Assembly: GCA_030378105.1 (NCBI GenBank)
Contig: JAUCGL010000088.1
Coordinates: 1-19,909, forward strand
Origin: Candidatus Halobeggiatoa sp. HSG11
GTDB taxonomy: Bacteria > Pseudomonadota > Gammaproteobacteria > Beggiatoales > Beggiatoaceae
Length of the DNA: 19,909 nt
Reading direction: 5' to 3'
The position numbers and the translations under genes were made by a program. Shown here piece by piece: positions 1 to 19,883 of the stretch. Each line of letters starts with the position of its first letter. The stretch's first letter is position 1. The notes under the pieces are model-generated. The model had not been told where the DNA came from. It did no database searches and saw only the letters and a program-made list of their open reading frames with translations.

Positions 1-375
1 GACGTTGCTTTGGTATCATTAATGTTGGACATTTGTTCCAACGCATATTTTTGGATACTTCAGATAGAAAATTATATGCTTTATAATCAATATATTATAT
101 TCAACGCAAATTACCAAAGAGCCAATAAAATCTACCATTTTGAAGGTTCGGTGGGTTTCCACTTCGTTCCTACTCACCCTACGAAAAACCATTTAAGTTA
201 AAGAAATTTTTTTGGAGTTCAAAGTGAAGCTTTGTATTATTTATTTTAATAATCTTAAGCTACAATTTGAATTCCAACTGCTTAATTTAATAGCAATACT
301 CCTTCTTAACTAAGAAAGGAATGGAAGAGGTATATAAACGATAAATATTATAAGTACAAAAATAAGTTAAAGATT

Positions 376-1089
376 TTAATCAATATTCAAATCAACCTGT
401 TGCAATAAATTTGCTCGCATTTGTCGTAACTGGCTAGAATCTTTAGAAGTTTGAATATGTTTAGATAACTCATCCAAAGCATCATACCAAAAACCATGTT
501 TAGCATAAATCAATGGCAATTTGTCTTTAGAACTAGCCTTTAATTCCGTAGTTAATTGAGCAGTTGGTTTAATCCGTATTATGCTGCCAGTAGCACTGAC
601 ATCTAAACTGGGATAATCTTTATGGCAATTAATGGACAAATTAATTTGGTATTTGATTCCCGGTATTAATTCAAAATCTGGTATCGGCAAAGCCTGTATC
701 CCTTTGGAAACTGACATTTTAAATTCCTTTTTAACTAACGGTGGGGCAAATTCAAAATCATTATCTGTAGCCAATTTATCTATTATTAATAACAATTCAG
801 CATCTTGCAATGGTTGCGATACCCACCAATACAAAATTGGATGAGATGATATAGTTTTACCAGTATTTTTAGGCACTAATAAACGCAAAGCAAAATCATC
901 TTGCATTTGAGTACAAGTACCACGCATACCTCGCATACCTCGCATACCACGAATTCCGCGTACATCAGCTTTAAACTCACGGACATTATCGTTAAATTCT
1001 GCCCCTTGATAAGAAATTTTATCCAATGCAGTCACATTCATTACAGCAAACATTGCTAGACTTAAAGTTATAAATTTGATACTATTCAT
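376..1089 (-). CDS. Secreted hypothetical protein with an N-terminal signal peptide and an internal RGI/RGM/RGM/RGM/RGT tripeptide repeat. A DUF928-like family is possible but cannot be verified from sequence alone.
   Basis: ORF 376..1116; the likely true start is the internal Met (MNSIKFITLSLAMFAVMNVTA|LD) at 1089, preceded by GAGGA 8 nt upstream. Hydrophobic h-region followed by an AxA-like cleavage site. No recognisable catalytic motifs. Divergently oriented to the CHAT gene. Confidence 0.6.
   Translation of the reverse strand: MNSIKFITLSLAMFAVMNVTALDKISYQGAEFNDNVREFKADVRGIRGMRGMRGMRGTCTQMQDDFALRLLVPKNTGKTISSHPILYWWVSQPLQDAELLLIIDKLATDNDFEFAPPLVKKEFKMSVSKGIQALPIPDFELIPGIKYQINLSINCHKDYPSLDVSATGSIIRIKPTAQLTTELKASSKDKLPLIYAKHGFWYDALDELSKHIQTSKDSSQLRQMRANLLQQVDLNID
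914..958 (-). repeat. In-frame 9-bp tandem repeat (5 units, consensus cgcatacct on the + strand) encoding (RGM)n inside the secreted protein.
   Basis: Direct reading: taccacg/catacctcg/catacctcg/cataccacg/aattccgcg. The protein shows DVRGIRGMRGMRGMRGT. Confidence 0.8.
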
Positions 1090-1197
1090 AATATTTTCCT
1101 CAATATTGAATGACAAAGACCTTAATTAAGTTTTCAAAACTTAAATTGGTCTGTTGAAAATCATTTTACTACAATTTTAAAATTAGGAGTAATTTTT

Positions 1198-3405
1198 ATG
1201 ATTTCTAGGCTATTTTTTTGTGTATTAATATTATGTGTTACTGAAACGTTTGCCACTCAAAAGAGTCAAGATTTTTATCAACAAGGAAATTTTGCTCAAG
1301 CGATTCGTAATTTGGAACAATCAATAACACAATTACAACCGGGTAGTACAGAACATTTTAACGCTATTATCCGTTTAGCAGTGGCTAACCAAAAAGCTGG
1401 CAATAATTACACCACCGCTTATGATTTATTTCAACAAGCTTTGACTTTAAGTAATGATAATACGGCTCGTCAAGTTCTAGTGCATAGTTATTTAGGCGAT
1501 TTATTGCTAGTTATGCAACAATCAGACGAAGCAATAACCCAGATGGAGAAACATTTAGAGACAGCTCGTTCTTTAGATGATTCAGCGATTTTAGTCAATT
1601 TTTTGAATAATCTCGGCAATGCTTTGGCTGTTGAGCAATATTATAAATCAGCTTTTCAGATGTATCAAGAAGCAATTGAAATAGCTCAACGTATTGATAA
1701 CCAAAACTTATATATCCAAACTCTGCTCAACCAATTACGACTTGATTCTAAGTTAAATTCTTTGGAACCAAAAAAACTTGCTGAAGCAGTTACCTTGATA
1801 GAAAAACTACCTGCTAATTATGATAAGGCTTTTTATTTACTTAGTGTTGGAGAGCTATCTTTACATGGAAATGGACAACAAGCTAATAAAATATTATCCC
1901 AAGTTTTAATCTTAGCCAAAAAATATCAAAATAATCGCTTACTCTCTCATGCTAAAGGTTTTTTAGGTGAATTGTACGGACAACAACATCGCTATGATGA
2001 GGCTTTGTTATTAACAAGAGAAGCTGTTTTTGCTGCTCAAGATATTCCAGATACTTTATATATTTGGGAAACCCAGTTGGGGCATATTCTGTTGGCTCAA
2101 AAAAAATTGGCAGAAGCTTTAATAATGTTTAGACAAGCTTTAGAACATTTACAATTAATTCGCCAAAAATTGAATGTTGGTTTGCATAATTCACAAGACA
2201 ATTTTTACCAACATATTCAGCCAATTTATTACAGTATTGCAGATATTTTATTGCAACAAGCAAAACTGGCTACTGATGATAAAAAGGATTTGTTAATTCA
2301 AGCAAGAGATACAATTGAGCAATTAAAGGAAGCAGAATTGCAAGATTACTTTCAAAATGAATGTATTTCAGCAGTTAAATCTAGTATAAAACAATTAGAT
2401 AATTTGGGCGAAAATACAGCAGTGTTTTACCCTATATTATTGAAAAATCGCATAGAATTATTAATTAATATAGGAACTGAATTAAAGCAAGTTGTCATTC
2501 CAGTTTCTCATGCGGAAGTCAATGCAACAGTGTTGGAATTTCGTTCTAATTTACAACGGACTACAGAAGGTAGTTTTATCGTACAAGCCAAACAGCTTTT
2601 TCAATGGTTAATCGCTCCTTTACAAGAGGAATTTGATAAGCATAAAATTAACACGTTGATAATTGTTCCAGACGGTATATTGCGTACTATTCCTATGTCT
2701 GCGTTATATAATCCAACTAAAAAACGTTTTCTGTTTCATCAATTTGCTTTGGTGACAACTCCTAGTTTAAGACTAACCGATCCGCATAAACTGCCTCGCA
2801 AAAATGTCCAAATAATGTTAAATGGTCTATCGGAAGCCGTGCAGGGTTTTACTCCGTTACCAAATGTTATACAAGAGATTGAACAGATTGATAATATTTT
2901 TAACAAAAAGGAAGTGTTATTAAATAAGGATTTTTCACTGGAAGCAGTTAATCAGGCTCTACAAGCTGCTCCTTATGAAATTATACATATTTCTTCACAT
3001 GGTCAATTTGATCGTAATCCTAAGAAAAGTTTTTTACTTACCTATGATAGCAAGTTGACAATGGATCGATTGGAAAAATTATTTCGAGTAACTGGATTAA
3101 GGAAGAAACAGGTAGAGTTATTGACTTTGAGTGCTTGTCAAACGGCTGTTGGTGATGAAAGGGCTGCATTAGGATTGGCCGGTGTGGCACTTAAGGCTGG
3201 GGCAAGAAGTGCGTTGGCAAGTCTTTGGTTTGTGGATGATGAAGCAACTTCTCAATTGATAGCTGAATTTTATCAACAGTTGCAAAATCCAGAATTATCC
3301 AAAGCTCAAGCTTTGCAAAATGCTCAACGGAAATTGGCTAAACAAAGACGTTTTCGACATCCAGCTTATTGGGCTCCATTTTTGTTGATTGGGAATTGGT
3401 TGTAA
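1198..3405 (+). CDS. TPR-repeat + CHAT domain (caspase-like, clan CD) protein with a predicted Sec signal peptide.
   Basis: 735 aa. N-terminus MISRLFFCVLILCVTETFA|TQ is signal-peptide-like. The N-terminal ~450 aa are TPR-like helical repeats (AxxAxxxY/LxxAL patterns). The C-terminus carries CHAT hallmarks: the His motif IHISSHGQF (His codon 2998..3000) and the Cys motif LLTLSACQTAVGDE (Cys codon 3136..3138), followed by SALASLWFVDD. AGGAG lies upstream of the ATG. Confidence 0.85.
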   Translation: MISRLFFCVLILCVTETFATQKSQDFYQQGNFAQAIRNLEQSITQLQPGSTEHFNAIIRLAVANQKAGNNYTTAYDLFQQALTLSNDNTARQVLVHSYLGDLLLVMQQSDEAITQMEKHLETARSLDDSAILVNFLNNLGNALAVEQYYKSAFQMYQEAIEIAQRIDNQNLYIQTLLNQLRLDSKLNSLEPKKLAEAVTLIEKLPANYDKAFYLLSVGELSLHGNGQQANKILSQVLILAKKYQNNRLLSHAKGFLGELYGQQHRYDEALLLTREAVFAAQDIPDTLYIWETQLGHILLAQKKLAEALIMFRQALEHLQLIRQKLNVGLHNSQDNFYQHIQPIYYSIADILLQQAKLATDDKKDLLIQARDTIEQLKEAELQDYFQNECISAVKSSIKQLDNLGENTAVFYPILLKNRIELLINIGTELKQVVIPVSHAEVNATVLEFRSNLQRTTEGSFIVQAKQLFQWLIAPLQEEFDKHKINTLIIVPDGILRTIPMSALYNPTKKRFLFHQFALVTTPSLRLTDPHKLPRKNVQIMLNGLSEAVQGFTPLPNVIQEIEQIDNIFNKKEVLLNKDFSLEAVNQALQAAPYEIIHISSHGQFDRNPKKSFLLTYDSKLTMDRLEKLFRVTGLRKKQVELLTLSACQTAVGDERAALGLAGVALKAGARSALASLWFVDDEATSQLIAEFYQQLQNPELSKAQALQNAQRKLAKQRRFRHPAYWAPFLLIGNWL

Positions 3406-3664: not shown

Positions 3665-4675
3665 ATGTTATCACATTTATATATTGTTCAATCTAAAAAT
3701 GGTCTAATCAAAATAGGCCGTAGTAAATGTCCCAAAAGACGTATCACTGAAATAGCTAAAGCCACCGGTACAAAAGTTATTAAGCAACATATATCTCCAC
3801 TCTGTTTGAATGCCCATAAAATTGAGCGGTATTTACATAAACATTTTGCTAAACATCGACAAGAAGGTGAATGGTTTGATATTGATTTTGAAACAGCTGT
3901 TGACGAAGCTGAAAAACAGAAATTCCAAACTGAAGAGCCAAGTAAAATGATGCCATTTGAATTTAATGGTGACAAAATACGTACTTTGACTGATGAAAAA
4001 GGTGAACCTTGGTTTGTAGCTAAAGATGTTTGTAAAGTTGTAGAAATTAGTAAATACCGTGATGCTATTGCAAAACTTGATGATGATGAAAGGATGTCCA
4101 TGATTGTGGACACCCTTGGTGGAAAGCAAAGAATGGTGTGTGTTAATGAATTTGGATTATACACACTCATACTCATGTCACAAAAACCTCAAGCTAAACA
4201 AGTTCGGCGTTGGGTAACTCACGAAATCCTCCCAAGTATCCGCAAAACTGGCCAGTATTCTATTCCAACTAATCAACAACTGAAAGGTAAAGTTGAGCAG
4301 AAGACTTTTGAGAGTTTCATTGCTGACTGTTTTATTCCCGATTCAACCAATAAGGAAAGAGCTAGAGATATTTATTTAATTTATCAAGGTTGGTGTTTGC
4401 AGAATAAATGTGAGGCTCGAACAATTCAATGGGTTGGAATGCAACTAAGGAAACAAGGTTATGGTAAAAGCAAATGTCCACCTAATGGTGTGGCCTGTTG
4501 GCATGGATTCCGACTGAATAATTTGGCTTGCCCAGCCAATCCAAGTAATTTGGAGGATTTACAGAGCTATCTATCTGCTTTGAGTAAAAATCTCGCTACT
4601 GGAATGCAATATTCTAATACGGAGTTATTGAGTTTGATTAATACTGCTAATCAGAAGGTTATGGCAATTCAATAA
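3665..4675 (+). CDS. Phage-like protein with an N-terminal T5orf172/GIY-YIG-like domain, a central Bro-N (BRO family N-terminal, antirepressor-type) domain, and a Cys-rich C-terminal region of unknown function.
   Basis: N-terminus: LYIVQSKNGLIKIGRSKCPKRRITEI...EGEWFDIDFETAVDEAEK, the T5orf172/MUG113-like motif (IKIG.S..P..R...L). Middle: FEFNGDKIRTLTDEKGEPWFVAKDVCKVVEI...VDTLGGKQRMVCVNEFGLYTLILMSQKPQAKQVRRWVTHEILPSIRKTGQY, the canonical Bro-N pattern. AGG lies 7 nt upstream of the ATG. Flanked by IS-end repeats. Confidence 0.75.
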   Translation: MLSHLYIVQSKNGLIKIGRSKCPKRRITEIAKATGTKVIKQHISPLCLNAHKIERYLHKHFAKHRQEGEWFDIDFETAVDEAEKQKFQTEEPSKMMPFEFNGDKIRTLTDEKGEPWFVAKDVCKVVEISKYRDAIAKLDDDERMSMIVDTLGGKQRMVCVNEFGLYTLILMSQKPQAKQVRRWVTHEILPSIRKTGQYSIPTNQQLKGKVEQKTFESFIADCFIPDSTNKERARDIYLIYQGWCLQNKCEARTIQWVGMQLRKQGYGKSKCPPNGVACWHGFRLNNLACPANPSNLEDLQSYLSALSKNLATGMQYSNTELLSLINTANQKVMAIQ

Positions 4676-4855: not shown

Positions 4856-7408
4856 TTAAATATTACTCACCAACAATTCTGGCCGACAACTTGTCCAATC
4901 AACCTGTTTAGCTTCTTTAACTTCAGTTTTTAAATCAATATCTTCTTCCTCTTCAATAAGCACTAATTCGTTAGCAATAAAATCGGCTGGGGAAGGTTGG
5001 CTGCCAGTTAAATGGAATACATAGAAAGTGCTTGGTTCCATTATGTCTTCAATGGTGCAAGGTCGTCTCATATGGGCGGCAGCATTGAGGAAATTGATAC
5101 CAAAAGCTTTTAAGGCTCCGGTTAAATCAACATCTATGGACTCAATTGCTACTTCGCCATCTAAACCCAAATTTGAGGAAGCACTTATTAAACTATTTGG
5201 AGAAGTTATGAATTGGTCAGCAACAATGCGAATATTGCCACCATGTCCTGCATCAGCTTGGGCTTTGATTTGACCTTGATTCAATACCACGAAATTGGGA
5301 TTTTCAATCGTTATATTGCCTCCATCCCCGCTACCACCTTGTACGCTGGTAGTCATTTGCCCTTCTCGCAAAAACAGTAAGTTTGGAGTGACGATAGTCA
5401 TATTACCACCGGTGGCGTGTTTGGCAGAGGTAGTGATTGTGCTACCATTGGTTATTTTTATCGTATTGGCTTGTACGGCAACATTACCGGCATTACCGGT
5501 TCCCATAGCGTTAGCTGTAATTATTCCACCATCTTTAATGTTAAGATGATTGGTTTCCACTTTAACATTCCCACCTTGTCCAATACCTAAAGATTGAGTA
5601 GAAATAGTACCAGCAGAATTGGTGATATTATCCGTAGCAATAACATGTACATTGCCACCAGGACCTTGTCCAATAAATATTTTTTTTCCTATCAAACCAC
5701 CGCTAGCACTGTTAATTTCAGAACCAGCTCCCATGAATAAATTATTTATGCTAACAGTGACATCTCCAGCTACACCTTCACCAAGCGTACCTGCACTAAT
5801 CCCGGCATAATCATCTATAATAAGATCATTAGCAGCAACAGAAATATTACCGGCAGCACCTTTACCAAAACTCATAGTGACAATGCCAGATTGGTTATTT
5901 TCAAGAGTAATCACACTGATAATAAGTAATCCTAAACGTCTTCCACTTATAGACATTGTGTTGGAGTTAATGTTTATTTTGCCGCCATTTCCATCTCTAA
6001 AAGCTGTGGATGTAATCAGACCACCACCGGTTATAATTATTTTATCGGCATTCACCGTAATGTCATTGCTGTCAGATATTCCATAATTATCGGTTGAAAT
6101 CGAACCACCAGCTATATTTAAAAGTCCAGTAGTGATAGTAATACTACCTGATTTTCCACCATTGTAGGAGGTCACAGTGGCTAAAGTACTAATATTATCT
6201 TGTTTAGTAGTACCCAGAATAACAACCCTTCCCTTTCGTCGACCTGATATAAAAACGGATTCCGTGGCATTAATATTGATATCGCCACTTTGCCCTTTGC
6301 CATAGGTCTCACTACCAACGATACCTCCTTTATCCAGTAATATTTGTTTGGCTTTGATCGATATATCACCTGCATCACCGGTATCAAAATTGGTGCTTCC
6401 AATGACGCTTCCAGTGACTGTCAAATAAGGAACATTAATAGTTATAGCACCCGCATTACCACTATCCATCGCGTCATTCATTATAGCGTAAAATTCTCCT
6501 TTAATATCAATACTATCTGTCAATTTCAGGTTAATACCCTTACCATTCTCATCGGCCATCGTCTTGGCTTGAATGACCGCATCATCCATGAAAAATTGTC
6601 CACCACGAACAAAAACACTGCCACTGCCTCTACCACTGACTTCCATTAAGGTATTATTAGCTGTTATGGTTCCACCTTCAGCATTCAAGTCTAATCCAGA
6701 CTCGCTTGGAATAACTTCACCTTGAGAAGCTACACTCGCCAAATTAATTCGTCCCGCTAGTGCAGATAATTTAGAACTAGCAAAAATCACCATGAATCCT
6801 TGTTCATCAAACACTATCGGAGAATTACCGTTCAAATTTAAATCTCCACCAATTAATGATAAAGTTTGTCCATAAGGCACAGCCAATGTACTGTCTTGTG
6901 TAGAAATTGATTTGGGAGAATCAGTCAAAAAACCAAAACTTGCAATCGGCGCAATCGTCAACAAACTATCACTCGGATTAAGCGCATCAAACCGCCCATT
7001 TTCTCCCAAACGTAAATAGTCAGCAGTGCTGGCATGAAAAGAGCCTTGCACATCCAATTGAGCATTCGGCCCAAACATAATTCCATACGGGTTAAGAAAA
7101 TACATATCTGCATTGGGAATTGTCGAACGGATTAAACCATCAATGTTAGAAGGATTGCCACCAGTTACGCGACTTAAGATATTCTGCACACTGTTTGGCC
7201 CAGAGAAGGTGGCACTTTCCGCGCTATTCAAATTAAAGTCTTGGAAGCTGTGGAAGAGATTACCTCCATGTTGTTGACCCAAATCAGCACCAATTTGAAA
7301 ATCAGGACCGGGTAAATTGATATTTTGGCCGAGTGTACCGTCAGTTACTATTTCGGCGTTGGAGGATAAAGTGATGATTAATAAAGATGCTATTGTTAAA
7401 TGTTTCAT
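4856..7408 (-). CDS. TPS-domain (haemagglutination-activity / filamentous haemagglutinin N-terminal domain) exoprotein. Gly-rich beta-helix repeat body; TpsA-like, paralog 1.
   Basis: 850 aa. Signal peptide MKHLTIASLLIITLSSNA|E. TPS hallmarks: TDGTLGQ...GGNLFHSFQDFNLNS...NILSRVTGGNPSNIDG...FLNPYGIMFGPNAQLDVQGSFHAST (NPNGI-type motif). The body is GGNI/GxG repeats. TPS domain at ~6930..7350. Confidence 0.85.
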   Translation of the reverse strand: MKHLTIASLLIITLSSNAEIVTDGTLGQNINLPGPDFQIGADLGQQHGGNLFHSFQDFNLNSAESATFSGPNSVQNILSRVTGGNPSNIDGLIRSTIPNADMYFLNPYGIMFGPNAQLDVQGSFHASTADYLRLGENGRFDALNPSDSLLTIAPIASFGFLTDSPKSISTQDSTLAVPYGQTLSLIGGDLNLNGNSPIVFDEQGFMVIFASSKLSALAGRINLASVASQGEVIPSESGLDLNAEGGTITANNTLMEVSGRGSGSVFVRGGQFFMDDAVIQAKTMADENGKGINLKLTDSIDIKGEFYAIMNDAMDSGNAGAITINVPYLTVTGSVIGSTNFDTGDAGDISIKAKQILLDKGGIVGSETYGKGQSGDININATESVFISGRRKGRVVILGTTKQDNISTLATVTSYNGGKSGSITITTGLLNIAGGSISTDNYGISDSNDITVNADKIIITGGGLITSTAFRDGNGGKININSNTMSISGRRLGLLIISVITLENNQSGIVTMSFGKGAAGNISVAANDLIIDDYAGISAGTLGEGVAGDVTVSINNLFMGAGSEINSASGGLIGKKIFIGQGPGGNVHVIATDNITNSAGTISTQSLGIGQGGNVKVETNHLNIKDGGIITANAMGTGNAGNVAVQANTIKITNGSTITTSAKHATGGNMTIVTPNLLFLREGQMTTSVQGGSGDGGNITIENPNFVVLNQGQIKAQADAGHGGNIRIVADQFITSPNSLISASSNLGLDGEVAIESIDVDLTGALKAFGINFLNAAAHMRRPCTIEDIMEPSTFYVFHLTGSQPSPADFIANELVLIEEEEDIDLKTEVKEAKQVDWTSCRPELLVSNI

Positions 7409-7526: not shown

Positions 7527-10103
7527 TCATTTTTTACAAGTTAAAGAAGCCAATTTTTCAGTTGAATTTTTAACCGAAACTGTTGTTTTAATAGGCAATA
7601 TTTCGGATAACAACGGTCCACTTGGCAATAAATCGTCCAATGAGTTAGGCGAACCTTCACTTGGTATAACAACAAAGCTACTCATATTTTCAGTTATCCT
7701 TTGACCACAAGGAGTTTTCATTTGATTACTAGCATCCACAACTTTATCTGGTAACACAACCAAAAAACCATCCAAATCAACATCTATAGACTCAATTGCT
7801 ACTTCACCATCCAAACCCAAATTTGAGGAAGCACTGATTAAACTATTTGGAGAGGTAATGAACTGTTCAGATTTAATACTTATGTTACCACCATGTCCTG
7901 CATCAGCTTGTGTTTTGATTTTGCCTTGATTTAACACTACAAAATTAGGATTTTTGATGGTGATGTTACCGCCACTTCCTACTCCCTTTGCAACACTGGT
8001 GGTTATTTCACTATTATTCAAATAAAGCAGTCTTGAAAGATTTGTTAATTCGATATTTCCTCCACCTGATAGAGTTGAGGCGGTACTTATGTTAGCATTT
8101 TCAGTTAATTGTATCTGTTGTGCTTGTAAATTAATTTGGCCAGCATCGCCAATACCATAAGCACGAGCGGAGATAGCTGAATCACCTTTAATATCCAAAA
8201 AATCGGTTTGTAAATTAATATTACCGCCTAGCCCATGAGTGTAGGTGTCAGTGAAAATTCCTGTTTGATTCGCTTGCGAATGTTGAGTAGTTAAACTAAT
8301 ATATTTTGATCGAATGTTGATACCACCACCATGTCCAACACCTATAAGCATTTCTGAAGTCGATATATCGTAAATACTATTACTCGCATTGATTTGCCCA
8401 CCTTCAGTGAGAATCAAATTTTCAGTTTGTAGGTCAATAGTACTAATTTTTTCACCCAAACCAAGTGATGATGCAGTAATTGAACCTTCCTCAGTCAAAT
8501 GAATGGTTTTGGCTTTCAACTTCAACTGTCCACCAGTACCAAGTAAAGAAAGACTTTGAATGCTACTTGTATTATGATTAACTTCCTGATTAGTACTTGG
8601 TAGAAAAATAATACCATCCCGTCGTCCAGATAAAAACAAGGTATCAGCCACATCTAATTGAATACTACCCGCTAATCCAAGGTCAGCCGCTGAAGTTGCA
8701 ATAAAGGCACCTGCTGTTAGATTGATATTATTCGCTTGAATATGAATATTAGCTGCATTACCTACACTAAAACTTGCACTAGTAATAATTCCTCCAACCA
8801 TATCAAGTTGTTGAGTGTTAATATCAATATTGCCTCCTAACCCTGATGAATAAGTCGTACTATCAATATAAGAGGGTAAATCTATAAACGGTACTCCATT
8901 GCGTATCCCACTTCCAACACCATATCCTGATATTAAAATAGATTCAGTTGCTTTAATAGTTAATAAACCACTTTTCCCACCAACAGATGCGTTAGAGATA
9001 CCAGCTCCATTTAAGAGAGATAACTGAGCTACTTCTATGTCAGTATTTCCACCAATAGTTTCTGCCATTGGATTGGCTGATATAGCTACTCTATCCAATA
9101 CTAATTTTGGTACTTTAATGGTTATTGAACCACCATGACCACTTCCAAATGCTTTGCTAGAAAAAGATTGAAGTCCAAGATGGTTCGGGTCACTAGTAGC
9201 ATATAATAATTCTGTCAATTGAATATCCATGAGGCCCCCATCGAAGTCTCCCAAAGTATTAGTTTGCAAGGCACTATCTTGCATTTGTAACCACCCACCA
9301 CGAATTTTAAGGTTGCCACTGCCTAAGCTACTGGTATCCACTAGAGTACGATTGAGAGAAATGTCGCCTCCTTGTCCGGTGATGGTTAAATCATTATTAC
9401 TCACAATCACTTCGCCACTCGAACCAATTGCTGTTAGATTGAGTGTACCGCCAGTGGTTTTGAGGAAGGAAGTTGCAAAGGTCGCATAAATATTCAAGTC
9501 ATCAAATTGGATTGGCAAAGTTCCCTGTAATTGTAAATCTCCACCAATTAATGACAAGGATTTGAATGGCGGAACTAACAAAGTACTGTCCTGCGTGGTA
9601 ATTGGAGCTGGTGAATCACCAAGGAATCCAAATGCTTCAATTGGAGCAATGGTCAACAAACTGTCACTCGGATTGCGAACATCAAACCGGCCATTTTCCC
9701 CCAAACGTAAATAATCAGCAGTGCTGGCATGAAAGCTTCCTTGTATGTCTAATTGAGCATTTGGCCCAAACATAATTCCATATGGATTGAGGAAATAGAA
9801 ATTTGCATTGGGAATTGTTGAGCGAAGTAGCCCATCAATATTGGATGGATTGCCACCAGTTACCCGACTGATTATATTTTGCACTGAATTTGGCCCAGAA
9901 AATGTTGCTGATTCTGAACTATTCAAGTTAAAGTCTTGGAAGCTGTGGAATAGGTTGCCGCCGTGTTGCTGGCCTAAATCTGCTTCGATTTGAAAATCGG
10001 GGCCGGGTAGGTTAATATTTTGGCCGAGTGTGCCATCAGTGATAACTTCGGCGTTGATTGATAGAGAAGTGACTAATAAAGGTATAGTTATTAAGTATTT
10101 CAT
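7527..10103 (-). CDS. TPS-domain exoprotein, paralog 2 (TpsA-like).
   Basis: 858 aa. N-terminal ~185 aa are ~90% identical to paralog 1, including all TPS motifs. Conserved C-proximal block GGNITIKNPNFVVLNQGKIKTQADAGHGGNI...SPNSLISASSNLGLDGEVAIESIDVDL. Divergent central Gly-rich repeats and a divergent 81-aa tail. AAGGA SD. Confidence 0.85.
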   Translation of the reverse strand: MKYLITIPLLVTSLSINAEVITDGTLGQNINLPGPDFQIEADLGQQHGGNLFHSFQDFNLNSSESATFSGPNSVQNIISRVTGGNPSNIDGLLRSTIPNANFYFLNPYGIMFGPNAQLDIQGSFHASTADYLRLGENGRFDVRNPSDSLLTIAPIEAFGFLGDSPAPITTQDSTLLVPPFKSLSLIGGDLQLQGTLPIQFDDLNIYATFATSFLKTTGGTLNLTAIGSSGEVIVSNNDLTITGQGGDISLNRTLVDTSSLGSGNLKIRGGWLQMQDSALQTNTLGDFDGGLMDIQLTELLYATSDPNHLGLQSFSSKAFGSGHGGSITIKVPKLVLDRVAISANPMAETIGGNTDIEVAQLSLLNGAGISNASVGGKSGLLTIKATESILISGYGVGSGIRNGVPFIDLPSYIDSTTYSSGLGGNIDINTQQLDMVGGIITSASFSVGNAANIHIQANNINLTAGAFIATSAADLGLAGSIQLDVADTLFLSGRRDGIIFLPSTNQEVNHNTSSIQSLSLLGTGGQLKLKAKTIHLTEEGSITASSLGLGEKISTIDLQTENLILTEGGQINASNSIYDISTSEMLIGVGHGGGINIRSKYISLTTQHSQANQTGIFTDTYTHGLGGNINLQTDFLDIKGDSAISARAYGIGDAGQINLQAQQIQLTENANISTASTLSGGGNIELTNLSRLLYLNNSEITTSVAKGVGSGGNITIKNPNFVVLNQGKIKTQADAGHGGNISIKSEQFITSPNSLISASSNLGLDGEVAIESIDVDLDGFLVVLPDKVVDASNQMKTPCGQRITENMSSFVVIPSEGSPNSLDDLLPSGPLLSEILPIKTTVSVKNSTEKLASLTCKK

Positions 10104-10123
10104 TTTATTTTTCCTTTTAAATT

Positions 10124-10800
10124 GCCTGAATCAGGATTTTCAAAATTATAGAATTTTCAGGATAAATTCACAAGCTAGTTTTGTTCCATCCTGTTAATTC
10201 TCAAATTCTCAAACGGTTGCAAATCATATAATTTTCTGGTTAAATAGTTGGTAATTGGTTTAGGGTAGTTCGTAAACAACCCCAAGCCTAGACAATTAAC
10301 TATCGTTGCTAGTCTTGCCGTGCAATCATTATTAATCCAAAACTTCGTTGGTACATCAAGGGCAGCAAATACCCATAATTGATGTTTTTTGCTCTGTAAA
10401 ATATGACCATAATTCATCCATTTGTACGAATAGTAAATTTAGTCCAATTGTTATGCAAAGAAATGTATGAAATACTTTACTTTTTTCACCAATAGCTTCG
10501 ACCCACCGTTCAATAGTTCTGACATCATGTCCTATAATATTATGCGATCTGTCCTACAGATAATCCACAGGAACACATTTTCGCAACCATTTCATATTCA
10601 TAAAAACTACCTTGCTTTTTAAACAAGCCTGAATACCTTGTTTCTGAAAAACGATGATTACCACCATGACACTTCAACATTTGTCGGGGGATAGAGTCAG
10701 ATTTTGTTGTATAAACACCATCTTTGGTTATTGTAATTCATTGGGTCTTGGTAGCAGGGACATTTTTTATCTGGACATAAAAGTTGTATTTTTGTATTAA
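10124..10800 (-). mobile_element. Degenerate IS1-family insertion sequence (~0.7 kb) with frameshifted/stop-interrupted insA-like and insB-like reading frames.
   Basis: Minus-strand translations: ITKDGVYTTKSDSIPRQMLKCHGGNHRF (cf. IS1 InsA ...[25 protein letters not shown]) and KMCSCGLSVGQIA (HTH-like). MDELWSYF then, after a frameshift, SKKHQLWVFAALD...CTARLATIVNCLGL (cf. IS1 InsB [22 protein letters not shown]...GERTMATLGRLMSLL). The size matches IS1 (~768 bp). Comparison to IS1 is from memory, not a database search. Confidence 0.6.
10175..10760 (-). pseudogene. IS1-family transposase (insA/insB-like) pseudogene with multiple frameshifts and stops.
   Basis: As above. The tracked ORF 10175..10417 is only its 3' fragment. 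Confidence 0.55.
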
Positions 10801-10877
10801 TTTTTTCGCACATATATTACCATAATTTTATTAAGTGTTTATATCTGTATAAAATATTATGATAACATACCTGCATT

Positions 10878-10985
10878 GGTTTGTGGGGACTACCGTTTTT
10901 CAGATAAATAATTTCACTTAAAACCTACGAGGTTTCCAAAACCTAGCAGGTTTCACACGAATGTATCTTAATGGATGTCTATAGG
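10878..10985 (-). repeat. Family H hairpin element, inverted copy (aaacctacgagg-tttccaaaa-cctagcaggttt).
   Basis: Reverse complement aligns with 4706..4806 over ~100 bp, including the flanking ttatttatctgaaaaa module. Confidence 0.7.
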
Positions 10986-11075
10986 TTCACCCCTTCGGGG
11001 TTAACAATTGATTCATAAACCCTGAAAGGGTTGAATGTGAATAACCACCGATGAAATCGGTGGAATATAGTAAGT
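10978..11075 (+). ncRNA. Candidate structured RNA or repeat element (family T): three consecutive hairpins capped by UUCG, GAAA and GAAA-type loops.
   Basis: caCCCCttcgGGGG; AACCCTgaaaGGGTT; CCACCGATgaaATCGGTGG. The stable tetraloops occur only when read on the + strand. A decayed inverse copy lies at 15120..15245. Confidence 0.4.
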
Positions 11076-11111
11076 CCCATAATTTGGCATTCTTCAACAC
11101 ATATTTGACAG

Positions 11112-11206
11112 TTATTTCGGGAATGAAACGAAGTGGATTTCCCAAAATCTAAATTAAGCAATCGTTTCGGGAAATACGTTTCACTTCATTCCCGAAACAA
11201 CTGTTC
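11112..11206. repeat. Nested long-range inverted repeat: outer arms tttcgggaatgaa[acg]aagtg / cacttcattcccgaaa with a 3-nt bulge; inner atttccc / gggaaat.
   Basis: Direct reading. No ORF; gene-free region. Confidence 0.6.
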
Positions 11207-11404
11207 ACTAATTTTTAATTTTTTACATCCATAAATTGGGATACAAAAATTAGTCAAAATAGCTGTTTTTCGACAGGCTAGTCAGATTCCCATTCCCATG
11301 AGGACATGATTTCGTGGGCATGACAATTAATTATTTTTATCAACGAATCTATTATAGTCAGTCATAGGCGTTCTGGATAATTCATAACTAATTGATATAT
11401 ATAT

Positions 11405-11485
11405 TTAATTATGAATGGTTAACTGTGAATATTTAATTGTTAATGAAAGTCAAAATCATTAATAATTAACCATTCATAATTAATA
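11405..11485. repeat. 18-bp inverted repeat (ttaattatgaatggttaac ... gttaaccattcataatta) with a ~40-bp AT-rich spacer, immediately 3' of the flotillin gene.
   Basis: Direct reading. Possible terminator or protein-binding palindrome. Confidence 0.5.
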
Positions 11486-11498
11486 ATTGCTATACCAT

Positions 11499-18524: not shown

Positions 18525-19109
18525 CTACTTGATATTTGCTACCAATTCCGTAGTTCCCCAAATTTTGGCTGATATTTTTCCATTTGTAGCTATAAATTTC
18601 TTCCAATCAATTGGTTCATTCGTCACTATTGCTTTAAAGTATTCTTGCCCAATTTCTAATGTTAGTTTGGGCATAACAACAAGAGGTGCATCAGCTTCTA
18701 TTGCTGTTTGAGATTCGGGCAGTGAATAAATTTGCTCATTTTTGACGGTTTTATTAAACAGCAATTGAGATAATTCACCAGTGGGTGAGATGTTGAATAA
18801 TGTCAGATATGCGGTTTTTTCTGAAGGAAAATCTCCAACTTTGTAGTGCAATACTATTTCATCTTCAGTTGTGAATTCAGTGACATTAGGAATATTGTTT
18901 ATCCACATTGCTATTGAAAAAGATGCGGCTGGATTTTGCAAACTTTTAACTTGAGCAACAATATCAGTGGGAATCTTTTTTTGTGGTTCAGGACTTTTAG
19001 GGGTTTCAAGCCATGTTTGAAACATTATCAGAACGATACCAACAATCATCGGTGCGGCAATGGCAACGATAAGGGCATCTTTCCAGTCAAATTTTATTTC
19101 CATTTTCAT
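18525..19109 (-). CDS. Membrane-anchored hypothetical protein (single N-terminal TM helix, extracytoplasmic C-terminal domain).
   Basis: LIVAIAAPMIVGIVLIMF TM segment. No recognised motifs. Confidence 0.5.
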   Translation of the reverse strand: MKMEIKFDWKDALIVAIAAPMIVGIVLIMFQTWLETPKSPEPQKKIPTDIVAQVKSLQNPAASFSIAMWINNIPNVTEFTTEDEIVLHYKVGDFPSEKTAYLTLFNISPTGELSQLLFNKTVKNEQIYSLPESQTAIEADAPLVVMPKLTLEIGQEYFKAIVTNEPIDWKKFIATNGKISAKIWGTTELVANIK

Positions 19110-19145
19110 AATTGATTATCTCTTTTGGGTAGTATTGAATAAAGA

Positions 19146-19190
19146 AAAACCTGGCAGGTCTTGAAGACCTGCCAGGTTTGCTTTTTATTT
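19146..19190 (-). terminator. Rho-independent terminator (aaacctggcaggtc-ttgaa-gacctgccaggttt followed by a T-run). Bidirectional in appearance.
   Basis: 12-bp perfect GC-rich stem with T-tracts on both strands. Immediately 3' of the OmpA-family gene. Confidence 0.75.
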
Positions 19191-19883
19191 AACAGCAATC
19201 TCAACTCGGCGATTTTTAGCTTGTGCTGTTTTTGAATTGCCGGGTACGAGTGGGTGCTTGCTGCCATGACCTTTTGCTTGAATCCGGTTTTGCTCAATAT
19301 TTTGGTTAATTAAACCTTTTTTCACTGTGTAAGCACGTTGTTGAGAAAGTTCCAAGTTAAGTTGCTGACTTTGTTTCATGCTTTTGCCACGCCAGCGTTG
19401 ATTGTCTGAATGTCCATCTATTTTTATCCAAGTGGGTTTGACAAATTTAAGGTCCGCAGCAATTTGATTAAGTTGTTGGTTTGATTTTTGTTTGAGGGTT
19501 GCTTTACCTGAGTTGAAAACTAAATTGCGAAAAATAACTACGTGTTGCATTTTGGCTCTTAAACCACAGTCGGCTAACATTTTGTTGACTTTTGCTCGTC
19601 GCTTTTCATTGAAGAGCAGTAACAAACTGTCTTTATTTAGGATTTTTCCTTCTTCAGTAACAGCATATTGATTGTTTTCCAAAAGTTCGACAATTCGGGC
19701 TTTGGAATCTTTATCTGTTTTACAGGCGTGAAGATGAGCTTCTAAACTGAGGGGAGATTGGCCTTGTTTACGGTAGGTTTCCCCCACGGCTTTCTCATAA
19801 AAATTCTTGAAGTTTTGGTATAATATAAAGCAGATTTCAATAACCATAATTTTTGAGAAGAAGAATACCTGTGAACAAAACAA
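19185..19883 (-). CDS. OmpA/MotB-family peptidoglycan-binding domain protein. The N-terminus may extend beyond the window.
   Basis: The C-terminal half shows VVIFRNLVFNSGKATL...LNQIAADLK...IKIDGHSDN...LSQQRAYTVKKGL...NRRVEI, the classic OmpA_C pattern. Confidence 0.75.
   Translation of the reverse strand: MFCSQVFFFSKIMVIEICFILYQNFKNFYEKAVGETYRKQGQSPLSLEAHLHACKTDKDSKARIVELLENNQYAVTEEGKILNKDSLLLLFNEKRRAKVNKMLADCGLRAKMQHVVIFRNLVFNSGKATLKQKSNQQLNQIAADLKFVKPTWIKIDGHSDNQRWRGKSMKQSQQLNLELSQQRAYTVKKGLINQNIEQNRIQAKGHGSKHPLVPGNSKTAQAKNRRVEIAVK

Follow-up and report, generated by a model that had tools for sequence, protein, structure and literature searches.

A predicted exported TPR-CHAT protease and its association with two-partner secretion genes

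Bacterial CHAT proteases are now seen as cytoplasmic executioners or switches, as in Craspase, gasdermin activation and SAVED-CHAT. This raises the question of what role can be played by a CHAT protein whose gene begins with a predicted export signal. Such a gene is found in the window, i.e. the whole stretch of 19,909 nucleotides that was analyzed here. The same ORF is called by NCBI (MDM8566356.1, entitled 'CHAT domain-containing protein [Candidatus Halobeggiatoa sp. HSG11]'); this annotation already names the CHAT domain, and what is new is the location of the protein and the system around it, not its fold.

The protease and its predicted export signal

The features of the gene, from ORF calling, translation, the ribosome binding site (RBS), Pfam and an AF2 model, are as follows.

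1198..3405, plus strand: gene of the predicted exported TPR-CHAT protease, 735 aa, MDM8566356.1
1198..1254, plus strand: predicted Sec signal peptide with n/h/c layout, residues 1-19, cleavage between TFA and TQ
1249..2376, plus strand: TPR/helical-repeat array, residues ~18-393, ~20 helices (Pfam, AF2)
2362..2364, plus strand: Cys389, invariant in 40/40 sequences, within ELQDYFxxEC where the TPR array meets the CHAT domain
2587..3396, plus strand: CHAT (caspase-hemoglobinase fold) protease domain, residues 464-733
2998..3000, plus strand: catalytic His601 (SSHGQF), invariant in a 40-sequence alignment
3136..3138, plus strand: catalytic Cys647 (SACQTA), invariant in the same alignment

No earlier start codon precedes the ATG within the ORF, and an RBS (AGGAG) is found about 9 nt upstream of it. 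The Pfam CHAT profile (PF12770) matches residues 464-733 with E 1.5e-68 and 231.8 bits (cutoff 24), covering profile positions 4-289 of 289, and the array is matched by TPR_12, TPR_2, TPR_1 and TPR_10. In the AF2 model (pLDDT 87.5) the CHAT domain has the caspase-like alpha/beta fold that was asked of structure prediction, with residues 407-463 as its beta-strand start. The original prediction of an intact His/Cys dyad was right in its coordinates, and both residues are conserved in all 40 relatives of the alignment (39-61% identity). The helical array is also present as predicted, but the model gives it a length of ~375 aa (residues ~18-393) and not ~450 aa. PDB sequence matches of the protease were dominated by TPR proteins, a PDB sequence search with the CHAT domain alone gave no significant match, and Csx29, separase and DdvA are linked to this domain by fold comparison only. 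Taken together, the protein is a TPR-CHAT protein with a modelled caspase-type fold and an intact dyad, for which proteolytic activity is predicted.

Apart from the catalytic Cys647, Cys389 is the sole cysteine of the mature protease, and such a cysteine-poor protein (2 Cys) fits the expectation for the envelope. The surrounding ELQDYFxxEC motif was found in 119/119 stand-alone and 58/60 fused relatives (see below), and Cys389 might act on the catalytic cysteine as a latch, by redox or disulfide chemistry.

The N-terminus, MISRLFFCVLILCVTETFA followed by TQ, has one basic residue (R4), a 10-residue core (LFFCVLILCV) and T and A at positions -3 and -1; the features sought in a Sec signal were a basic n-region, a hydrophobic core of 7-15 residues and small residues at -3/-1. 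Residues 1-17 are unstructured in the AF2 model (pLDDT < 55). Using a home-made, uncalibrated heuristic in place of SignalP, which under loose settings also scored segments further inside cytoplasmic control proteins as signals, we found an export signal in 108/114 close homologues and in 126/137 representatives at ≤50% identity. The N-termini of the homologues vary in length and sequence, are always hydrophobic with an AxA-type end, and the signal stops a few residues short of the first conserved TPR helix. A membrane anchor is disfavoured because the hydrophobic core, at 10 residues, is too short. A lipoprotein was rejected on inspection, as there is no lipobox and LILC has Leu at -1.

Natural gene fusions gave a second line of evidence. 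We found dozens in which a TPS domain, a beta-helix and TPR-CHAT are joined in a single ORF, as confirmed with Pfam, and in these TpsA stands exactly where the signal peptide would be. The fusions align to the window protease from residue 22-26, just past the predicted cleavage site, with TpsA in the place of residues 1-21, and with a fusion as query PF05860 and PF12770 occurred together in ~60 of the best 120 clusters. Fusions of this kind are equally compatible with surface display of the protease. Our export call is based mainly on the family-wide conservation of the signal and on these fusions, which together with the heuristic support the textbook cleavable signal peptide that was first proposed. 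The accompanying idea of a non-cytoplasmic CHAT protein is likewise supported, but not as something unprecedented, since a periplasmic TPR-CHAT has been described in DdvA (PMC11506125).

Neighbouring genes in the window and in relatives

The other genes of interest in the window are listed below.

376..1089, minus strand: DUF928 gene, 237 aa, divergent from the CHAT gene (PF06051, E 6.5e-31; NCBI record P0241)
919..963, minus strand: Arg-Gly repeat VRGIRGMRGMRGMRG, read from the sequence, within the disordered N-terminus of the DUF928 protein
4856..7408, minus strand: TpsA-type exoprotein 1, 850 aa (Pfam TPS, E 1.1e-37; TIGR01901)
7527..10103, minus strand: TpsA-type exoprotein 2, 858 aa (Pfam TPS, PF05860, E 3.8e-36)

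The DUF928 protein has an SP-like N-terminus of its own (heuristic), and its AF2 model shows residues 1-56 as disordered, followed by an Ig-like sandwich and a helical bundle. The repeat VRGIRGMRGMRGMRG matches the DUF928 family motif Y.PP..G.P..RVGGG.RG and is a candidate cleavage or recognition site. The two exoproteins are tandem paralogues (46% identity in pairwise alignment), both carry the N-terminal TPS domain of a type Vb system, and exoprotein 1 has an SP-like N-terminus (heuristic). Between the CHAT gene and the TpsA pair sits a Bro-N/T5orf172 gene. A tblastn search of the 19.9-kb contig with 75 queries gave nothing below E 0.07 for TpsB or CHASE2, intact or degraded, including the ORF-poor region 10104-11498; the search covered this one contig, and a cognate TpsB may lie elsewhere in the genome. 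Next to the window genes there is no cyclase or kinase, no sigma-factor gene was found among the window ORFs, profile searches of the ORFs gave no cas or gasdermin genes, and Rfam and tRNA scans gave no RNA genes. A promoter/terminator scan gave 53 sites versus 48.6 expected from shuffled sequence, and therefore we make no regulatory claim. A defence-system reading was dropped: PADLOC gave a weak generic TPR match for the protease and none for DUF928 or TpsA, and cas and gasdermin genes are absent.

Each window TpsA has exactly two cysteines, 57 residues apart, in its C-terminal tail. In the TpsAs of related cassettes (see below) the first cysteine is present in 39/39 and a second one is found among the last 13 residues in 28/39 and is missing in 11/39; the median is 2 cysteines per protein, and the pair, 50-95 residues apart, usually makes up all the cysteines of the protein. 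From this pattern we infer that the tail may form a disulfide loop in the periplasm. The tail motif GRGGLP has its Arg in most cassette TpsAs; both window TpsAs lack it, and this Arg was dropped as a P1 cleavage site.

Relatives of the exported TPR-CHAT protein were found in hundreds of species. A search of representatives of 50%-identity clusters gave at least 150 family members, all of those listed having E ≤ 1e-241, and the carriers include Beggiatoaceae, Desulfonema, Magnetomorum, Nitrospira, Scalindua and Verrucomicrobia, i.e. filamentous or multicellular bacteria and many others. When the neighbouring genes of 80 genome loci, drawn from 8 or more phyla, were clustered without bias, DUF928 appeared in 50 loci, a TpsB (ShlB/POTRA_2) in 48, a TPS-domain protein in 42 and a sensor-cyclase in 23. 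In the 31 related loci with at least 8 kb on each side, a TPS component was present in 29/31, DUF928 and TpsB in 25/31 each and a cyclase in 13/31, and none (0/31) was without any partner. The canonical order is TpsA, TpsB, CHAT, (CHASE2-cyclase), DUF928, with same-strand gaps of median ~50 bp. Directly 3' of CHAT, on the same strand and at a median distance of 8 bp, there is a CHASE2 or dCache class III cyclase in 17 pairs, 19/21 of the cyclases being CHASE2 plus Guanylate_cyc, and in 34 loci sigma-54 regulators and kinases come after the cassette. Whether homologues with signal peptides always neighbour TPS-domain genes, as the original prediction asked, was thus answered strongly in the positive (29/31), but not without exception, as no TPS gene lies within 10 kb of the homologue in Beggiatoa alba. 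In close relatives the CHAT orthologue is disrupted by deletions, and it is therefore dispensable at least in these.

In open-access papers we did not find the CHAT domain together with two-partner secretion, hemagglutinin or CHASE2, nothing relevant was returned for the CHAT domain with a signal peptide, and a search of this literature by Pfam/COG accession gave no description of the cassette. DUF928 appeared in one unrelated open-access paper.

Role of the protease and alternative explanations

Because of the export signal and the TPS cassette, the protease most likely acts in the envelope on a secreted surface protein. It is very probably an exported protease that belongs to the cassette. 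We further propose that it is a Sec-exported, soluble, periplasmic TPR-CHAT cysteine protease serving as dedicated accessory of a type Vb module, and that it acts as outlined below; to this reading as a whole we give a probability of about 50%. The cognate TpsAs would be threaded through TpsB and still be tethered by the C-terminal tail, which would be closed into a periplasmic loop by a disulfide. The TPR array would then recognise the tail or a DUF928 partner and the CHAT domain would cut the tail, by which the surface protein is matured or released, in cis in the fused versions and in trans in the version of the window. As an alternative output, CHAT may pass a signal to the adjacent CHASE2 cyclase. 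That the substrate is the TpsA tail itself is put forward tentatively, at somewhat below even odds.

Several observations count against the accessory model. There is no TpsB or CHASE2 gene in the window and the Bro-N/T5orf172 gene separates CHAT from the TpsAs, the Beggiatoa alba homologue stands alone, 11/39 cassette TpsAs are without the second cysteine, the window TpsAs are without the GRGGLP Arg, and the CHAT orthologue is broken in close relatives. Release of TpsA also leaves the roles of DUF928 and the cyclase unexplained.

These two partners are central to an alternative in envelope signalling, where TpsA is a surface sensor or antenna and the periplasmic CHAT cleaves the disordered, Arg-Gly-rich N-terminus of DUF928, or the sensor itself, and thereby turns on the adjacent CHASE2 cyclase (adenylate/guanylate) or two-component genes of the sigma-54 type. 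The class III cyclases directly 3' of CHAT, the regulators and kinases behind the cassette in 34 loci, and the conserved motif PP..G.P..RVGGG.RG in a disordered segment of DUF928 are all in line with this, and DdvA is a precedent for a periplasmic TPR-CHAT in signalling, for which autoproteolysis was proposed (PMC11506125). However, the window genes have no adjacent cyclase or kinase, cyclases are found in 13/31 full-flank loci versus 29/31 for TPS genes, and the fusions physically join CHAT to TpsA and not to a sensor. On balance we consider signalling a serious but unlikely explanation. A related and broader view, that the TpsA-TpsB-(exported TPR-CHAT)-(CHASE2 cyclase)-DUF928 cassette is an unrecognised envelope module working as an extracytoplasmic caspase switch, where contact, damage or a ligand at TpsA leads to proteolytic release or a cyclic-nucleotide signal, is speculative and rather doubtful.

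The fusions can also be seen in another light, as TPS-TPR-CHAT resembles the layout of CDI toxins (TpsA with a C-terminal effector). The protease would then be a secreted or surface-displayed effector that attacks proteins of neighbouring cells or of the matrix in a gingipain-like manner, the fused CHAT being C-terminal TpsA cargo exported via TpsB and the stand-alone form taking another route. This is improbable: the stand-alone protease lacks a TPS domain and should not be exported by TpsB, there is no conserved immunity-like neighbour gene, a folded 700-aa TPR solenoid is an unlikely passenger for the TpsB pore, and the C-terminal parts of FhaB, CdiA, HMW1 and CdrA are known to stay in the periplasm.

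Some enzymes of the caspase fold, such as legumain and GPI-transamidase-type enzymes, are transpeptidases. TPR arrays are protein-binding modules and a second cysteine, Cys389, is invariant, so that a non-proteolytic protein could be pictured that assists TpsA in the periplasm as a chaperone or scaffold, or ligates the TpsA tail to another envelope component as a transpeptidase. We give this even less credence, as there is no evident acceptor substrate and the strict invariance of His601/Cys647 and their flanking motifs speaks for catalysis. Finally, it is very improbable that the protein is not exported at all, its hydrophobic N-terminus being a start-codon artefact or membrane anchor and its role cytoplasmic as in Csx29 and the gasdermin-activating CHATs: although every stand-alone bacterial CHAT protease that has been studied well is a cytoplasmic one and our signal-peptide scan is uncalibrated, the start codon, an ATG behind a good RBS, is the earliest in the ORF and agrees with the NCBI start, the hydrophobic core has just 10 residues, the signal is kept in >90% of diverse relatives, the cassette neighbours are all envelope proteins with signal peptides, and there is no CRISPR, gasdermin or defence-system match.

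A large CHAT family behind a signal peptide and tied to type Vb secretion would bring caspase-type regulation to the envelope, and two-partner secretion would gain a dedicated, co-encoded processing enzyme. Testable hypotheses can now be framed for DUF928 and CHASE2, and for the tail that the TpsAs conserve at their C-terminus. The module is abundant in Nitrospira, anammox bacteria and giant sulfur bacteria, which points to a part in the surface or aggregate biology of environmentally important organisms.

Comparison with known systems

Among proteins of related fold, Csx29 of the type III-E CRISPR Craspase works in the cytoplasm in a complex with Cas7-11 and is switched on by target RNA, whereas the window protein has a predicted signal peptide and no cas genes beside it. 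The two share 13-16% sequence identity, and against the NCBIfam model NF041237 for Csx29 the window protein scores 43.9 bits, short of the cutoff of 300. Separase has the caspase-hemoglobinase fold and is eukaryotic, nuclear or cytoplasmic; gingipains, which share the fold as well, lack a TPR array and are secreted by the type IX system.

The Myxococcus xanthus protein DdvA, a transmembrane anti-sigma factor with a periplasmic TPR-CHAT (PMC11506125), is a structural match of the window protein (PDB 8ROT/8RW5). DdvA is anchored by a TM helix and has a cytoplasmic zinc anti-sigma domain, whereas the window protein is a predicted soluble Sec substrate; it has no anti-sigma domain, TM helix or ECF sigma gene, with just 19 residues before the TPR array. 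Furthermore, DdvA is a dimer without the three-helix active-site element and controls a CBASS/CRISPR island, in contrast to the TPS cassette of the present family.

On the side of secretion, the TpsAs of the HMW1/HMW1B and HxuA/HxuB systems have a C-terminal Cys pair, where a periplasmic loop locks TpsA in TpsB. CdrA belongs to this disulfide-anchored type as well. The cassette TpsAs likewise have a Cys pair, their disulfide being predicted from the sequence only, and for HMW1/HxuA no dedicated protease is known. A precedent for processing is found in Bordetella FhaB, where envelope proteases (SphB1) act on the TpsA C-terminal region during or after secretion. CtpA and DegP are also maturation proteases of FhaB. 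In contrast to the CHAT family these are serine proteases, and no conserved operon joins their genes to the TPS genes.

The closest functional analogy is LapG, the Pseudomonas aeruginosa protease of the TpsA adhesin CdrA, in a system that also comprises CdrB and LapD. LapG is of unrelated fold and family, as Pfam matches of the window protease are CHAT and TPR only and it has no homology to LapG (BTLCP); LapG is not encoded with its TPS genes, and it is regulated by c-di-GMP via LapD and not by a CHASE2 class III cyclase. The likeness lies in an exported cysteine protease, in TpsAs with a two-Cys tail and in the nucleotide cyclase of many cassette relatives. By this analogy, the window protease may process or release an anchored TpsA, as LapG does for CdrA.

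A CHAT-family protease with a predicted export signal

The window is one whole contig (19,909 bp) from the large sulfur bacterium Candidatus Halobeggiatoa sp. HSG11. The longest ORF of its region, at 1198..3405 (+), is preceded by AGGAG about 9 nt before the ATG and is identical to an NCBI gene call (MDM8566356.1, 'CHAT domain-containing protein'), i.e. the CHAT gene itself is already annotated there. Pfam gave a full-length CHAT match over residues 464-733 (E 1.5e-68) and placed several TPR families within residues 30-320. The proposed catalytic dyad, His601 (nt 2998..3000) and Cys647 (nt 3136..3138), lies at the coordinates originally read and was invariant in a 40-sequence alignment (39-61% identity). 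An AlphaFold2 model built on this alignment was confident (mean pLDDT 87.5, pTM 0.87), and in it an alpha/beta domain comes after about 20 helices that span residues 18 to 393; the helical array thus spans ~375 aa, and not the ~450 aa of the original prediction. Foldseek revealed structural likeness to Csx29 (E 2e-15), DdvA (3e-12) and separase (~1e-10), and the caspase-like fold that had been expected is present. A PDB search by sequence with the CHAT domain alone gave no match, so the relationship is distant (13-16% identity). Profile, dyad and fold all identify the protease as a bona fide member of the CHAT family. The protein is not Csx29 itself (43.9 bits vs. a cutoff of 300; no cas genes), nor a DdvA-type anti-sigma factor, as it has neither a cytoplasmic domain nor a TM helix, and it is not related to LapG.

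The N-terminus, MISRLFFCVLILCVTETFA followed by TQ, combines a single basic residue with a hydrophobic core of 10 residues, too short to anchor the protein in a membrane, and a predicted cleavage site with Thr at -3 and Ala at -1; no lipobox was found in this N-terminus, and residues 1-17 are unstructured in the AlphaFold2 model. Signal peptides were called with an uncalibrated heuristic; with a loose search range of 70 residues it also picks out internal stretches in cytoplasmic control proteins. By this heuristic, a hydrophobic N-terminal segment with an AxA-type end was found in 108/114 full-length close homologues and in 126 of the 137 non-fused representatives (≤50% mutual identity) drawn from an exhaustive HMM search, several of the exceptions being visibly mis-called starts. 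In the alignment the segment varies in length and sequence across the family and ends a few residues ahead of the first conserved helix, QQGxxFYQQGxFxQAI. The homology of natural fusion proteins to the window protease starts at residue 22-26, so that the signal peptide is exactly the part replaced. For predicted export we would put more weight on family conservation, the alignment pattern and the fusions than on the heuristic, and together with the N-terminal layout they favour the export signal proposed from the first reading. An extracytoplasmic, soluble TPR-CHAT protein appears to be uncharacterised.

Low cysteine content is typical of envelope proteins, and this fits the mature protease, whose only two cysteines are the catalytic Cys647 and Cys389 (2362..2364, +). 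The latter lies at the TPR/CHAT junction in an invariant motif, ELQDYFxxEC, and is conserved in 40/40 relatives; the motif occurs in 119/119 stand-alone and 58/60 TpsA-fused homologues. Conceivably, Cys389 could latch the catalytic cysteine through a disulfide or by redox control.

Neighbours of the protease gene and the conserved cassette

Genes around the protease in the window (coordinates, strand, description)
376..1089, −, DUF928 gene with its own predicted signal peptide, divergent from the protease gene
3665..4675, +, Bro-N plus T5orf172/MUG113 gene between the protease and the TpsA pair; weak PADLOC PDC-S57 match
4856..7408, −, TpsA-type gene 1; TPS domain E ~1e-37
7527..10103, −, TpsA-type gene 2, in tandem; TPS domain E ~1e-37
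18525..19883, −, DUF4384 and OmpA-family genes at the right contig end

The remaining window genes are housekeeping (flotillin, RpiA, FabI, PilZ, PBP1b and an OmpA-like gene), and TpsB and CHASE2 genes are absent from the 19,909 bp. The 1.4 kb upstream of the TpsA pair (10104..11498) held no ORF >80 aa, no Rfam or tRNA match and no trace of TpsB or CHASE2. The TpsA paralogues share 46% identity overall. Identity reaches ~85-90% over the N-terminal ~170 residues (TPS domain) and over ~75 C-proximal residues (beta-helix cap), but the sequences diverge between these blocks and at the extreme tail, which suggests that recombination or diversifying selection may act on the exposed middle. The Bro-N/T5orf172 gene is of a type typical of mobile elements; other parts of the HSG11 genome carry fragments of this protein, and a related metagenome contig (L083) shows a near-identical arrangement beside a TpsA. 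The related locus L084 likewise has an OmpA-family gene on its flank.

A scan of one genome per species yielded >440 relatives. Of their loci, 80 were retained together with as much as 10 kb of flanking sequence; these belong to Beggiatoaceae, Nitrospirota, Desulfobacterales, Verrucomicrobiota, Scalindua, Competibacter, Burkholderiales, Magnetococcales, Binatia and Acidobacteriota. When all neighbouring ORFs were compared with one another and clustered without prior labels, five families recurred: DUF928 (50 of 80 loci), ShlB/POTRA_2 TpsB (48), TPS-domain proteins (42), sigma-54 regulators and kinases (34) and sensor-cyclases (23), 19/21 of the cyclases scanned being CHASE2 plus class III cyclase. 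Cassette genes canonically run in the order TpsA>TpsB>CHAT>(CHASE2-cyclase>)DUF928>, with median gaps of ~50 bp. In the 31 loci whose flanks both reach 8 kb or more, a TPS component was present in 29, DUF928 in 25 and a cyclase in 13, and none lacked every partner. The association with TPS genes is very common but does not always hold, as a separate lookup of the Beggiatoa alba homologue found neither TPS genes nor DUF928 within 10 kb. This conserved TPS/DUF928/CHASE2 cassette, together with the fusions, is what our analysis adds; the original observation is confirmed and its interpretation supported. A dedicated link between exported TPR-CHAT and type Vb secretion appears to be uncharacterised, and we found no description of CHAT with TPS, DUF928 or CHASE2 in the open-access full-text literature, although an earlier account may exist elsewhere.

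Variations on the cassette were also seen. In Nitrospira loci (e.g. L035, L047, L056, L058, L061, L064, L081) a TonB-dependent receptor regularly comes after it, along with a block of genes for sigma-54 response regulators and histidine kinases; TpsA, TpsB and the TonB receptor together resemble the HxuABC layout for haem acquisition. Near the Ca. Scalindua cassette, a 1514-aa member of the cyclase cluster (L045:1269-5813, −) also matches AAA_16, TPR and CHAT, and is a large, probably cytoplasmic STAND-like CHAT-cyclase protein. Three metagenome contigs from close relatives (L082, L083, L084) are ~87% identical to window 370..2971 and have the order CHAT< DUF928> TpsA> TpsA>; deletions equivalent to window 1841-2004 and 2971-3310 have broken their CHAT orthologue into pieces of 447 and 108 aa, while DUF928 and the two downstream TpsA genes are intact.

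Fusions, TpsA tails and the proposed role of the protease

CHAT and TpsA also fell into one cluster, which is due to single-ORF fusions at two Desulfobacterales loci (1602 and 2090 aa), each with a TPS domain, beta-helix, conserved TpsA tail, TPR array and CHAT. When a fusion was used as query, PF05860 and PF12770 occurred together in ~60 of the best 120 clusters. Such fusions occur in Desulfonema, Ca. Magnetomorum, Gammaproteobacteria and Acidobacteria, and some are named by NCBI 'Filamentous hemagglutinin family N-terminal domain-containing protein, CHAT domain-containing'. As Rosetta-stone evidence, these proteins indicate that protease and TpsA would act together in one compartment.

The TpsAs encoded beside relatives of the protease share a C-terminal module, ...ASS..G..G.V.I..P......LP.....(Cys)....SSFVv.GR.GLP..P..., followed by 40-90 variable residues, often with a second Cys within the last 13. 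The first Cys was present in 39/39 full-length cassette TpsAs and the second in 28 of them; these proteins are 850-1500 aa long, with a median of two cysteines. Each of the two window TpsAs has exactly two cysteines, spaced by 57 residues, and lacks the Arg of the tail motif that most cassette TpsAs carry.

DUF928 contains a family motif, Y.PP..G.P..RVGGG.RG, in its disordered part, and this could be a substrate, pseudosubstrate or adaptor of the protease. The window counterpart, VRGIRGMRGMRGMRG (nt 919..963, −), consists of perfectly repeated Arg-Gly triplets and likewise lies in the N-terminal disordered stretch; a Parabeggiatoa relative carries GLRGLRGLRGLRGLRG, and other phyla have the non-repeated RVGGG.RG.

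The main rival model is a signalling output from CHAT via the CHASE2 cyclase, which is suggested by the frequent position of this gene immediately downstream of CHAT. This model parallels the autoproteolytic periplasmic TPR-CHAT proposed for DdvA, which the DdvA paper calls the only reported protein with a periplasmic TPR-CHAT (PMC11506125). By analogy with TpsAs that are anchored through their C-terminus, we infer that the exported TPR-CHAT is best explained as a dedicated tail-processing or release protease of the cassette TpsAs. In the window, CHAT would act in trans on the TpsA tail; in the fusions it would act in cis, the bulky TPR-CHAT standing in place of the second-Cys tail. According to a two-partner-secretion review, HMW1 and HxuA are locked in their TpsB by a C-terminal disulfide loop of this kind, which serves as a periplasmic anchor; the Cys pair of the cassette TpsAs may form a comparable loop.
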